Of a DNA stretch of 64,000 bases, positions 8,191 to 48,849 are shown piece after piece. Each line of letters begins with the position of its first letter. Within the stretch, counting starts at the first letter, position 1. The position numbers and the translations under genes are program-made. A model generated the notes under the pieces. It saw nothing but the letters and a program-made list of their open reading frames with translations. It did no database searches and was not told where the DNA came from. This DNA is from Eledone cirrhosa (Eukaryota): NCBI GenBank assembly GCA_964016885.1, contig OZ024741.1, forward strand, positions 150,536,001 to 150,600,000, given 5' to 3'.

Positions 8191-8437
8191 AAAGAAAAAG
8201 AGATGAAATCGAAAATGCAACTGGAGTCTTATTTTTTTTAAAAATATATATATTTATTTGGTTCCTTTACCGGTTTCGCAGTTCTTCTGCTTTTCAAAAG
8301 GTGAGTTGAGTATATATATTTAAAAAAAAAATAAGACTCCAGTTGCATTTTCGATTTCATCTCTTTTTCTTTATACTTTCACTCGTGTAGGACACCTCGG
8401 TTATTTTTCATTTTGTAAAAAAAACCTCACTTTCTAA
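8191..8437. mobile_element. Short fold-back element, family J, between TA tracts
   Basis: 8191-8250 is the reverse complement of 8311-8372; related copy at 16015-16162. Confidence 0.75.
8264..8301 (-). ncRNA. Minimal type I hammerhead, U3-A8 core variant, GUA
   Basis: cctt-TTGAAAA-GCAG-aagaa-CTGC-GAAAC-CG-GTA-aagg; all stems pair. Confidence 0.8.
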
Positions 8438-8670
8438 TATATATATATATATATATATATATATATATATATATATATATATATATATATATATATATAT
8501 ATATATATAATGAAATTGTCTCCCTTTCATCATATATATATATATATATATATATATGATGAAGGGGAGACAATTTGATTATATATATATATATATATAT
8601 ATATATATATATATATATATATATATATATATATATATATGTATATGTATATATATATATATATATATAT

Positions 8671-9348
8671 ATATAAGTATGTACACGTACATACATATAT
8701 GTATACAGACGTACAGTAGTATGTATATATATACATACATGCACACATATATATATATGTACGTATGGATTCACCGAACATTTATTATAATGCTCGGTGT
8801 GTTTGTAAACAAACATCCCGTATTAAGCCGTAGTGTCTAGCAACCATCGCTGCTCGTTTGTTCAACACTGACAAAGGAACGCTGTACTAGTTTCAAGCTT
8901 ATTAGCTATCGTGAGCAACGTATACCTTCCTGCCAGATTGTTGAACGTATATACTTACCTCATGCATATTAACGGCTGAGTAGCCCAATTTGCATATCGA
9001 GTGGATTAATCGGCCGGGTGCACCGAAAACGATAGACGGAAAAAATGAAACGAAATTTCATTTCCTACTCTTAGTACGGATGTTACTTAAATATAAGTAT
9101 GTACACGTACATACATATATGTATACAGACGTACAGTAGTATGTATATATATATACATACATGCACACATATATATATGTACGTATGGATTCACCGAACA
9201 TTTATTATAATGCTCGGTGTGTTTGTAAACAAACATCCCGTATTAAGCCGTAGTGTCTAACAACCATCGTTGCTCGAACAAACGAGCAACGATGGTAACA
9301 GCCGTACTAACAGTGGGAAATGAAATTTCGTTTCATTTTTTCCGTTTA
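8671..9348 (-). mobile_element. Retrozyme-like element subfamily C, 420 bp period, partial tandem plus inverted tail
   Basis: 8681 repeats at 9101 and 8821 at 9241; 9283-9348 inverted; homologous to 9497-11802 and 35066-35890. Confidence 0.8.
8880..8920 (-). ncRNA. Minimal hammerhead, GUA, core mutated to CTCACGA (probably dead)
   Basis: cgttg-CTCACGA-T-AGCT-aata-AGCT-T-GAAAC-TA-GTA-cagcg. Confidence 0.7.
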
Positions 9349-9624
9349 TATATATATATATATATATATATATATATATATATATATATATATATATATA
9401 TATATATATATATATATATATATGTATATATATATATATATATAATTAAGTTAAAAATGTACATCCACATATGTATACTGAAATACTAGTATGCATATCG
9501 TATCCGCTGAACCGGTACGTACTCACGCTCTATGCAAATTAGTCTGCCCACTATTAATTTTCATAGAAAAAGCATATAACGATATGTGCTTTTACGATTC
9601 TCTAGAAAGGCCGGAGGATAGGTA

Positions 9625-9669
9625 AATGTTGCTGATGAGATGTAACAACATCGAAACTAGTCCAATATT
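9625..9669 (+). ncRNA. Minimal type I hammerhead, GUC, array copy 1
   Basis: aatgttg-CTGATGA-GATGT-aaca-ACATC-GAAAC-TA-GTC-caatatt; predicted cut after 9662. Confidence 0.9.
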
Positions 9670-10089
9670 CCTGTCTGGCTTTCTGGAGAATAGAGGAAAG
9701 GTGTTTCCTCGAAAACCAGTATGACTCTAAAAACCGGTTTGTCTGTGTGTTTACATACAGAATAGCTGAACACTCACAGTAAAGTGTCCAGTGAAAATCT
9801 CGGTACATCTACATATGTACACGTGTGTGTATTCATATGCATACTAGTATTTCAGTATACATATGTGGATGTACATTTTTAACTTAATTGTTTAAGCGTC
9901 AGCCATACAAAAGTGAGTTACAAACGAAACGAAATTTAATTTCGTTTCGTTATTTGTTTTTATCGTCTCCGCTGAACCGGTACGTACTCACGCTCTATGC
10001 AAATTAGTCTGCCCACTACTAATTTTCATAGAAAAAGCATATAACGATATGTGCTTTTACGATTCTCTAGAAAGGCCGGAGGATAGGTA

Positions 10090-10134
10090 AATGTTGCTGA
10101 TGAGATGTAACAACATCGAAACTAGTCCAATATT
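10090..10134 (+). ncRNA. Hammerhead, array copy 2
   Basis: Identical to copy 1. Confidence 0.9.
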
Positions 10135-45150: not shown

Positions 45151-47063
45151 TTCTCTCTAAATCTTCTACCACACGAATTTTAAGTAAGCTCTTAATATCA
45201 TTTGTATCAGACGTCTATCTGCTTTTGTCTTTGGGAGAAATTATTTTATTTCCGTCCAATGTGTAGTTATGTTTGTGTGTGTACGTGGGTATGAACTCCA
45301 TAACTCCATTACCTTCTCACTCTCATCCTTCCGAACAACCGTGAAATGGCGGAGAGTTGATTGTTGCTAATAAAGGCACGAAAAACAAAAACAATATCAA
45401 AACAAAAACAAAGTTCATGTTGAAAATATTATTATTGACAAAGGAATGTTCGTTGACATAATTGAACGACCTGAAGCAATCTAGTTATTGTAATAACTGT
45501 CAACATCTGTTGTGTTTGTGGTTTCCTTACAGTTCCTCCATTATTACGAACACAACCGCCATGATGTTGAACACACGGAAACATCATTAGCATTGATTTC
45601 ACGAGGCGAGAGAGAGAGAGAGAGAGAGAGAGAGAGAGAGAGAGAGAGAGAGAGAGAGAGAGAGAGAGAGAGAGTTTGTTCGATTCATACATTGATAGAT
45701 AGAGACGGAATATGGTAAGAAGAAAGAGATATAGGGAGAGCATGCGAGGGCATAAGCGAAAACGCCAATGTGTGTAGGTGCGATTGTGTGTGTGTGTGTG
45801 CGTGCGTGTGTATGTGTGTCTGTGTATGTGTGTACCTGTGTGAGAGTGTGTACCTCTGTGTATGGATTTGTATGCGTCTGTGTGTGTATAGGAATGTGAG
45901 TGAGTGAGTGTGTGTATATGTACGTTCGCACGGGCACGCGTATCAATTTTAAATGAACAGCCAGGCATTCTCAGAGAGATTCAGCATGCCACACTATGTA
46001 ACAAAAATAGGCCCTTTGAATTACAGCTGCATTAAATACAATGGGCTGCTAGACAGTTCCCTTGCTTCCAAAATCACTTAGAAGGCTTGAGTTGACCCGA
46101 GGCCAAGATACCATACAGTGAGATCGAACCCATGAACATATTATTGCAAAGCGACCTTAAGAATTCGGCATGCAGCATCCGCTATGGAATAGGCAAATAC
46201 GTTATTAAACCATACAGAAAAAAAGAATCATAATATGGATTACATGCAGTCATACAGTAGCCTTAATAATATATTACAATGATACCATCAATTATATATA
46301 GAAAAAACGAAAGACTTCTAAATCATCGAAAAACATCACAAGACTACAAGCCGTTGAATAAACATTAGATAATTCATATAATCTATAGTTTTGTATTCAA
46401 ACATGAAAGCTACAAACTTTATGAATCTAAACGTTACATTGGACATACATGTACAATTCTGACAATGTATTTACAAAGGGTTGTTGCTACATATATATTA
46501 CATCACATAGAAAACACTATTAAATAGAATATAGAAAATCATTAGTTGATAACATGAGACAACAATGGAGTGTTATCGTAGATGTTTAATTAGCTAGAAA
46601 TAGCAACTAAATATCTTCCACATCACGCATTGCATTCTAAGAGAAAATCAACCAACGAAATACTAGATGAGATGTGTATAAGAAAAAAACTAGATGGTAA
46701 TGCTTAGAGTGCCGTTGATCTTAGACGTGCCAAAATAGGATTTAACTTGAGCTAAACGACAAACATAAAATTTGATGGAGTAACGTAACCAGATTCTACC
46801 CAACATTTAACATCTTATATGCCTCAACTCGAAGCTTATAGTCTTTTGAATATTTAGCATCAATTAATAAACAAATCCTACTATATGTTTCAAACACATT
46901 TCTATCGTATCTGTAGACTATGCATATGTATTTCCTGGTTATATATTTTTAATATATCTCACTAATGTTGTTGAAGAAAGAGCAGGTTACTAAACAAGAC
47001 AAAAGTCTTTCACTGGAATTTAGACTATACATTTATGTATATGTATATGCATATGCATGTTTA

Positions 47064-47327
47064 TATATTGTTATACTTGGGGAGGGTCATATTGTTGTAA
47101 TAATATTGCCAGAAATAATAACAGAACACACTCACTGTTTGGTTGGCTTTCGCTTCTGTATCTTTTATATCTCCATAGTTAATTTATTTGGCAATCAAAG
47201 TTTATCATTGATTGACCAACGGTTAAAAATACAGATATAAATGTATATATATATATATATATATAGTCTATCAAAGTTCTTTCGTTGCACATGTGCAACA
47301 TCATCAGTGGTACTATTATGTTTCCTC
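47064..47327 (-). mobile_element. Solo pLTR of the PLE-2/3 family with HHR motif at 47270-47311
   Basis: Matches 28339-28592. Confidence 0.85.
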
Positions 47328-47330
47328 ACA

Positions 47331-48361
47331 TAACACAGCCACTATATTTAGTTGGTGTTACTTTTTCGGCCAATGCTATAGAATGAGTTGCTAGATGAGA
47401 ATTATTGAAATTTTAGAATTGGGTATTAAAAATTAATACCACATCTCTGGGGTCTAACACAGCTGCTATGAATATTTAGTATAGCGTAATCGGCCAATGC
47501 TATCTATAAGTTATTGGGGTGGGGTACTGAGGCTAAAGAGGCCCGATGGGCTGCCTTGGAGTAGGCGAAAGGGGAAAAAAAACAAAGAAACAAACGAGGA
47601 AGAAGATCGGTGGTGGGAAGAAGTGATAGGAGGAGACAAAGGGAAGAAGAAAACATAGAGGAAAAGAAAGGGGGTACATCTACCTATATAAGTTGGGGTT
47701 TTCCATATCTTATTCGGCAAGTGGGATGTTTCAGCCCTTGTCTACCCACCCGGATCGTTAGGGGGTTTGAGGGCGAGGTAAGTCTTCCGCAATCTGTGTT
47801 TGTATGCAGTTACGAGTTCGTCTTTTTTTATGCTCGGAGGAAACATTACAAATGCTGTTTACGAAGGATCAACTCCTAAACAAAAAAGACGAACTCGTAA
47901 CTGCATACAAACACAGATTGCGGAAGACTTACCTAGCCCGTAAACCCCCTAACGACCCTGGTGGGTAGACAAGGGCTGAAACACCCCACTTGCCGAATAA
48001 GATAGGGGAAACCCCAACTTATATAGGTAGATGTACCCCCTTTCTTTTCCTCTATGTTTTCTTCTTCCCTTTATCTCTTCCTATCACTTCTTTCCACCAC
48101 CGATCTTCTTCCTCGTTTGTTTCTTTGTTTTTTTCCCTTTCGCCTACCCGAGGCAGCCCATCGGGCCTCTTTAGCCTCAGTACCCCACCCTAATAACTTA
48201 TAGATAATACTCATAAATATTCATAGCAGCTGTGTTAGACCCCAGAGATGTGGTATTAATTTTTAATACCCAATTCTAAAATTTCAATAATTCTCATCTA
48301 GCAACTCATTCTATAGCATTGGCCGACATAGCAGAACCAACTAAATATAGCAGCTGTGTTA
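47331..48361. repeat. Long inverted repeat, about 490 bp arms with about 50 bp spacer
   Basis: 47331-47829 vs 47882-48361, slightly diverged. Confidence 0.88.
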
Positions 48362-48752
48362 GACTCCTTAGTTTTTGTTTTATTTCACTTCTCACTTTCC
48401 AATCTTACATTCTGATATATCTTTCTCTCATTTTTTATTATATTTCTTTCTTATTATATTTTTTCATTGTCTCCTAATCTCATTTGATTTACCAATTCTA
48501 TAACGTCCCTCCTCCATCTTCTCAAGAAATCTTTTTTCGCCTACCTCCTCTGGCCTACTTTCATACAGATTCCTTAGAATTGTCCGTATAGGTTTCACCT
48601 TCAACGCTTGACCGTCTCTACCCACTCCTCTATCGTTCTACAGGCAAGTTCAGCCACTCCACCCCCACCCACTACCATGATAGACTTTTCTGTGTCTGCT
48701 ATAAATTTTGACCAATCCTCTTGACAACTACAATCTTCCGATATAAGGAAGT

Positions 48753-48849
48753 ACCCATTGAAAAGTTCGGCTATTTATTTACCAGACTAACAACTCTTAA
48801 TTTTGTCCAGAAATAACCATCGAAACGGCTTGAGCTCTGCCGTCGGGGT
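48753..48849 (+). ncRNA. Family K full hammerhead, U3-A8 core, extended stems II and III, GUC
   Basis: accca-TTGAAAA-GTTCGGCTATTT..AAATAACCATC-GAAAC-GGC..GCC-GTC-ggggt; other copies give AAATAGCCGTC. Confidence 0.65.

Follow-up and report, generated by a model that had tools for sequence, protein, structure and literature searches.

Hammerhead motifs with a U3-A8 core are an inherited state of several element families in Eledone cirrhosa

Why do hammerhead ribozyme motifs with a U3-A8 core, in which TTGAAAA or TTGATAA replaces CTGANGA, recur within one short stretch of the Eledone cirrhosa genome? The stretch, hereafter the window, comprises 64,000 nucleotides (nt) of contig OZ024741.1 (assembly GCA_964016885.1, positions 150,536,001 to 150,600,000) and lies within a 3.0-Gb, microsatellite-rich genome; many hammerheads are present. 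A preliminary description of the window had proposed that five families with otherwise unrelated sequences share a compensatory exchange of the C3-G8 pair and that this recurrence implies selection for cleavage. Based on genome-wide counts and on the phylogeny of the carrier elements, we found that U3-A8 is the inherited state of each family, which comes from the family's source element. The families were named A to E, and their motifs in the window are as follows:

8264..8301, minus strand: family A hammerhead, U3-A8, stem I of 4 bp, stem II of 4 bp, A17
16039..16076, plus strand: second copy of the family A hammerhead, U3-A8, stem I of 3 pairs and then a mismatch
18820..18909, plus strand: family B hammerhead, U3-A8, stem I of 5 bp, bulged stem II, long loop
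20310..20357, minus strand: family C hammerhead, U3-A8, stem II of 5 bp, stem III ACCGGT, C17
22966..23029, plus strand: family D hammerhead-like motif, U3-A8, 3-bp stem II, C17 at 23019
48753..48849, plus strand: family E hammerhead of the older U3-A8 subfamily, stem III a hairpin, C17 at 48844

The core was found at all six places (8297-8291 and 20352-20346 on the minus strand; 16043-16049, 18825-18831, 22983-22989 and 48758-48764 on the plus strand), each time within type I hammerhead anatomy, together with GAAA, A15.1-U16.1 and H17, and with a Watson-Crick 3-8 pair. Four of the six motifs were recovered by the descriptor scans; for families D and E, the motif was delimited manually and with the aid of the family alignment. 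The three helices stand in type I order, with a stem I of just 2-3 pairs in copy 16039, in family C and in A2, a relative of family A that is described below. U4 G5 A6, A9, G12 A13 A14, A15.1-U16.1 and H17 are present in families A, B, C and E and in the most frequent state of D. The G10.1-C11.1 pair adjoins the core in A, B, C and E, and in D it is flanked by an extra C before it and an extra A after it. Stem III is palindromic in A, B, C and D and a hairpin in E. In the 8264 copy, which is located in the 3' pseudo-long terminal repeat (pLTR) of a Penelope-like element (PLE) family with a GIY-YIG domain, it is the palindrome ACCGGT and the predicted cut falls between 8268 and 8267; in the 18820 copy the cut is predicted 3' of 18904. 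The family C motif sits in the pLTR of a 4.9-kb PLE, and its stem I has two pairs followed by a C·U mismatch, also in full-length copies of the family. The family D motif, with a palindromic stem III of 14 nt (23005-23018), belongs to an old, decayed unit of about 320 nt and has A at 1.1, where many copies of the family have G. The family E motif combines G10.1-C11.1 with a bulged stem II, and A at 2.1 faces G1.1. The earlier description of the motifs as otherwise well formed holds only for the 8264 and 18820 copies, the stems of the other four being damaged or weak. Single-strand folding gave no support for the window copies except that of D (z -2.3; a relative of D at locus L292, z -4.8), whose minimum-energy fold differs from the hammerhead. 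The six motifs are genuine type I hammerhead sequences for which site-specific self-cleavage is predicted. Taken singly, the copies in the window are probably inert insertions.

The state of positions 3 and 8 was counted across the genome using sequence patterns for each family, with the reversed patterns as controls, which gave 0-1 matches; copies within a family are not independent events. Family A had 12,737 matches, about 98.7% of which were U3-A8. Its 109 copies without U3 had C3 in 53 of the 100 matches listed, all with A8, and its 55 copies without A8, which were found with a pattern that also fixed position 2.1, all retained U3, with G8 in 26; C3-G8 was found in 0/55 of them. U3-A8 was likewise present in 99 of the 100 matches listed for family B (6,351 in the genome, often spaced 590-595 nt apart) and in 97 of the 100 listed for family C (2,643 in the genome). 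From 917 candidates for family D, 40 were scored and 30 aligned; 25 of the latter had U3-A8 and none had C3, and other core positions were mutated as often as 3 and 8, as under neutral decay. Among the 7,140 matches of family E, 1,757 had C3 and only 75 lacked A8, the latter including 11 with C3-G8, 21 with U3·G8 and 10 with C3 and C8 or U8; hence 1,736 copies (24%) carry an unpaired C3·A8. Over six families, about 38,000 U3-A8 copies were counted. The motif is far above chance, and the near or complete absence of C3-G8 revertants (A and E) agrees with the preliminary description. Because U3-A8 is the family state, its origin through the decay of C3-G8 copies after insertion was rejected. Strict compensation was not supported: each single change is sporadic in A, B and C, at roughly 1% of copies or below, but the C3·A8 copies of E form amplified lineages.

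The hammerheads of families A, C and E are carried in the pLTRs of PLEs. Locus L321 is a full-length family E element with two pLTRs 3,118 nt apart, 0.5% divergent and both U3-A8, and with an unbroken frame of 786 codons between them. Pfam returned no match for this open reading frame (ORF), whose look-alikes carry GIY-YIG and reverse transcriptase (RT) families and which aligns weakly to the family C protein; by eye, it has RT-like motifs. The 4.9-kb family C element at L324 has U3-A8 in both pLTRs and a broken ORF, the protein of which gave weak RVT_1 and GIY-YIG matches below the cut-off. Family A hammerheads follow, at a distance of about 1 kb, GIY-YIG domains that are 52-54% identical to that of C, and both A and A2 were linked to PLE ORFs by tblastn. 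The elements also show the hallmarks of PLEs, namely direct hammerhead-bearing pLTRs, inverted 5'-truncated copies and (TA)n targets (PMC8557442).

The proteins of A, A2 and C share 52-61% identity, the changes between their stems II preserve pairing, and the ACCGGT palindrome is retained. In a protein tree of 20 ORF rows they formed one clade (98/91), and E was placed in a distant clade beside C3-G8 families. A single origin of all of the U3-A8 elements was rejected (approximately unbiased test, p-AU 1.7e-7, 7 rows vs 6). Joining E and family J in one clade gave p 2e-5, but the free tree leaves this fork open and the result was not relied on. The sequence trees thus show at least two origins of U3-A8 in PLEs, not five, since A and C are sister families. 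The recurrence itself was borne out in at least two distant PLE clades; the independence of five families was not, and the earlier impression that the sequences around the cores look unrelated is right for the RNA motifs and wrong for the elements. Families B and D cannot be placed in the tree. Both consist of short tandem or partial-tandem units, with a spacing of 590-595 nt in B and a repeat offset of about 320 nt in D. The B loci examined had no ORF of their own for an RT or endonuclease, and a comparison of the B unit with E, C, J, M55 and A loci gave simple-repeat matches only. B and D units are likely non-autonomous passengers of PLEs.

A further core state was found in A2, which was located by its likeness to A and is absent from the window scans. 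It has 11,236 matches in the genome, with C13 in 97 of the 100 listed and several loop variants. Its core combines U3-A8 with GCAA in place of GAAA, so that the type I consensus fails at A13. Stem II differs from that of A by a single compensatory pair, stem I consists of three A-U pairs, and H17 is A. The hammerhead stands behind a GIY-YIG domain that is 61% identical to that of C (examples at L042:4692, L055:6841, L121:3735 and L130:5441). According to PMC7092961, C17 pairs non-canonically with A13. The C13·A17 of A2 could be a swap of this contact, which is only a lead, as family A has A13 with A17.

The C3·A8 copies of family E share common diagnostic bases, adjoin broken family E ORFs and, in four elements (L322, L323, L326 and L327), bear C3·A8 in both pLTRs. 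A tree of the E pLTRs was built with positions 3, 7 and 8 masked from the 46 copies that resemble L321 over 90 nt or more upstream, leaving out those more diverged or truncated. In it, the C3·A8 copies make up a long grade, with an older U3 clade on one side and the youngest U3 clades on the other, and the well-supported branches force four changes at position 3, two of them in single copies. The sporadic C3 copies within the young U3 clades (L336, L346) were treated as single-copy mutations. ORF trees, which were rooted on relatives of 40-55% identity, nested the young U3 clade in C3·A8 (97/100 and 98/95), and the placement of all U3 copies of E in one clade was rejected (p-AU 5e-8 for DNA, 0.004 for protein). 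Between the old U3 clade and the C3·A8 copy L327, three roots fit (p-AU 0.27-0.50 for DNA, 0.08-0.35 for protein), which leaves two histories: either C3·A8 came first and U3 was gained twice, or U3 was lost and then regained. The divergence between twin copies of one insertion, which serves to date them, was 0-2.1% for young U3, 1.3-6.5% for C3·A8 and 2.6-5.6% for older U3 elements. No amplified E lineage that had returned to G8 was found. About 1,700 mismatched C3·A8 copies thus spread in family E, and re-pairing by U3 likely followed. Conservation was assessed in eight E subfamilies (81 of 86 copies), among which 0/10 invariant core columns, 2/32 stem columns and 39/102 flank and loop columns vary (p 0.014; core plus stems 3e-5). 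The only core positions that change among the subfamilies are 3 and N7.

Most of the sampled E copies (26/36) begin inside loop II or in the 3' strand of stem II, as at 48925-49045, 16295-16335, 16894-16931 and 17647-17761 of the window and at L321:144-159, and copies starting in stem-loop II frequently form head-to-head palindromes. Contig runs showed a depth peak and opposite-strand joints on L321 at the E truncation site. These starts may represent either a hot spot of truncation and fold-back or a mobile half-ribozyme hairpin.

What would maintain such cores? From the sequences, we lean towards a reading in which the source elements were selected for the hammerhead fold and for slow cleavage, the 3-8 pair being a soft requirement. 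The hammerhead is copied along with PLEs in A, C and E and along with short tandem units in B and D, and U3-A8 comes from the source. By analogy with other PLEs, a pLTR-ORF-pLTR or tandem-unit transcript would be cut 3' of H17, which would release a unit-length or circular template, and, given a stem III that is a bare palindrome, cleavage is predicted to need dimers. Once position 8 had become A, U3 would be favoured and C3 tolerated to about 1,700 copies, before U3 was gained or regained. The 1,736 C3·A8 copies of E and the 11,236 A13C copies suggest that self-cleavage is probably either slow or needed only loosely. The anatomy, copy numbers, linkage to RT and GIY-YIG ORFs, fixed core and near-fixed stems over the E subfamilies support this reading. 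It also aligns with the low, dimer-dependent in vitro activity of minimal PLE hammerheads that is reported in PMC4209133.

Several observations weigh against it. In a full double-mutant scan of a single hammerhead, only the G3-C8 swap gave strong rescue, the other single and double mutants of the 3-8 region being low, so that U3-A8 may be weak (PMC9901934). The A13C family fits dispensable cleavage, as do the short stems I of C and A2 (2-3 pairs) and the sampled E copies without the 5' core, 26 of 36. None of 20 family A copies had a 5' end at the predicted cut. The subfamily test was partly circular, as the pattern required part of stem II together with U4, G5, A6 and A9, and ragged alignment ends make up about 11 of the 39 variable E columns. 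By our estimate, one C3-to-U3 change on such a branch is not improbable in the absence of selection and could be neutral; two would be improbable. The recurrence, which the preliminary description took as a sign of selection for cleavage, does not show that cleavage, as opposed to the fold, was selected; the A13C family and the weak stems I weigh against efficient cleavage.

One alternative is that the fold serves a non-catalytic job, such as RT binding, palindrome-mediated dimerisation or a priming site, and that cleavage is dispensable. The abundance of A2 with its near-constant C13, the C3·A8 copies of E and the shorter mean stem I of U3-A8 matches (3.7 pairs, compared with 5.3 in C3-G8 matches of the same sample) would all be expected then, and, according to PMC8557442, hammerhead-free PLE clades spread well and the function is termed unclear. 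We nevertheless regard it as unlikely: G5, A6, A9, G12, A14 and A15.1-U16.1 are fixed and N7 is free, which is a catalytic pattern, H17 is never G among the families seen, and U3 came back after the C3·A8 period. Strict compensation, in which U3-A8 cleaves well, single changes are dead and C3·A8 spread via mixed dimers or mobilisation in trans by U3-A8 or C3-G8 partners, is rather less probable still. It agrees with the sporadic occurrence of single changes in A, B and C, with an older U3-A8 E lineage that overlapped with C3·A8 in time (2.6-5.6% vs 1.3-6.5% pair divergence) and with a palindrome within loop III of E, but C3·A8 elements own ORFs and carry this state in both pLTRs, their copies are the backbone ancestral to the youngest E members, and each cut in a mixed dimer would still require one paired core.

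A different possibility concerns the alignment of the core. If the C3 lineage of E, CUGAGAAG, was read as C3 U4 G5 A6 G8 A9 with an extra A, C3 would pair with the G at position 7, which is present in 95 of the 100 C3 copies listed, and an extra base after A9 is frequent in PLE minimal hammerheads according to PMC4209133. This register shift seems very improbable to us: linkage alone suffices to explain G7, as neighbouring U3 subfamilies have it too, and, by our estimate, a branch with some 0.2 changes per site is expected to leave any one site unchanged. The loss of the N7 spacer would probably be harmful. Selection for the fold with slow cleavage and a soft 3-8 pair thus remains the reading that we prefer.

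How common such cores are was estimated from a 1.4-Mb sample, made up of 140 pieces of 10 kb at fixed intervals. The strict descriptor gave 79 matches, among them 61 C3-G8, 9 U3-A8, 2 C3·A8 and 2 U3·G8, with 5 in the reversed control; the relaxed one, which was tuned after the families were known, gave 118, among them 73 C3-G8, 34 U3-A8, 3 C3·A8 and 2 U3·G8, with 2 in the reversed control. As U3-A8 accounts for about 29% of the hammerhead matches (34/118), CUGANGA descriptors undercount. The prediction that standard searches miss these motifs was also supported by Rfam, which recognised no hammerhead either at the B site or within five E loci and, among 150 of the 238 matches listed for the window, placed hammerheads at C3-G8 units only, below the gathering score. 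The sample also contained at least five further types of U3-A8 motif (L047:7083, L055:9879, L061:5538, L102:7105, L165:7017 and the minus strand of L175); the one at L047 marks the 5' end of a PLE ORF that is 43% identical to that of family E. Motifs in two copies with U3·G8 (L198 and L134, minus strand) or with U3·U8 plus GCAA (L121:8989 and L179:3260) may represent additional variant families or have arisen by chance. Among the family A copies of the sample, 10/20 alignments begin 39-43 nt upstream of the core, part of which may reflect the reference.

The other elements of the window include two that served as C3-G8 controls:

9496..11804, plus strand: tandem array of five units of 465 nt, all bearing a canonical C3-G8 hammerhead (control)
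18306..19012, plus strand: family B unit of about 591 nt and part of a second unit, tandem and retrozyme-like
23656..26109, minus strand: broken PLE ORF with RT and GIY-YIG, of another clade, with its own 3' C3-G8 hammerhead (core near 23450; control)
29450-32148, plus strand: broken PLE ORF related to that at 23656-26109, with its own C3-G8 3' hammerhead
47828..47965, plus strand: C-terminal fragment of the E ORF, 46 aa with 87% identity to L321 (approximate start), located upstream of the hammerhead at 48753

The family B unit at 18306..19012 showed no ORF for an RT or endonuclease. The two broken PLE ORFs come with inverted pieces, and their hammerheads have a very short stem III (A-GAAC-U). 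A link of D, A, B or E to these two ORFs was rejected, as they carry their own C3-G8 hammerheads; the apparent links are nested insertions in (TA)n. More canonical C3-G8 hammerheads of several families lie at 35141, 35606, 19424, 33534, 36623, 17295, 17915 and 42334. Broken ORFs resembling those of long interspersed nuclear elements (52963-56379, plus strand; 59676-61408, minus strand), which look like endonuclease and RT by eye, are unrelated to the hammerhead finding.

The U3-A8 pair itself is already published, PLEs included. Cervera and de la Pena (2014; PMC4209133) describe it in the hammerheads of Schistosoma mansoni Cercyon PLEs, with about 1,300 hits, and these resemble the present ones in their type I fold, pLTR location, short stem I, palindromic stem III and mostly single truncated or inverted copies. 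The E. cirrhosa elements differ from that account in the number of U3-A8 copies and families, in a C3·A8 lineage with later U3, in the A13C family of 11,236 copies and in the hairpin stem III of E. Perreault et al. (2011; PMC3088659) reported C3-G8 to U3-A8 covariation in several natural hammerheads, stated to be active in vitro; the other variants in the text seen (A6C, U13a, A6a, U15.1-A16.1) do not include C3·A8 or A13C, and no lineage history is given there. Families B and D share a short, tandem or partial-tandem unit, one type I hammerhead and the lack of an RT ORF with animal non-LTR retrozymes, as described in PMC7229834 and bioRxiv 10.64898/2026.07.22.740005, but the B unit is 591 nt long, compared with about 300 nt in those elements, and has U3-A8 and a long loop II. 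No match for an amplified C3·A8 lineage with nested U3 or for an amplified A13C family was found in the literature searched, a weak negative, as variant papers and the supplements of PMC4209133 were incompletely covered.

The furthest-reaching interpretation, which we hold only tentatively and consider doubtful, is that family E is a dated record of the change from C3-G8 to C3·A8 (about 1,700 copies) and on to two independent U3-A8 states, and that A2 swapped to C13·A17 and still cleaves. If this is true, the C3·A8 of E and the C13·A17 of A2 would be natural active cores that are undescribed in the literature covered. Whether PLE mobility needs cleavage is described as an open question in PMC8557442. 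The natural, high-copy and datable alleles found here (U3-A8, C3·A8 and U3-A8 with C13), together with the intact young element L321, would allow activity to be compared with amplification history. Thus, two high-copy core states, C3·A8 and A13C, which are seemingly unreported, make the requirement for cleavage testable.

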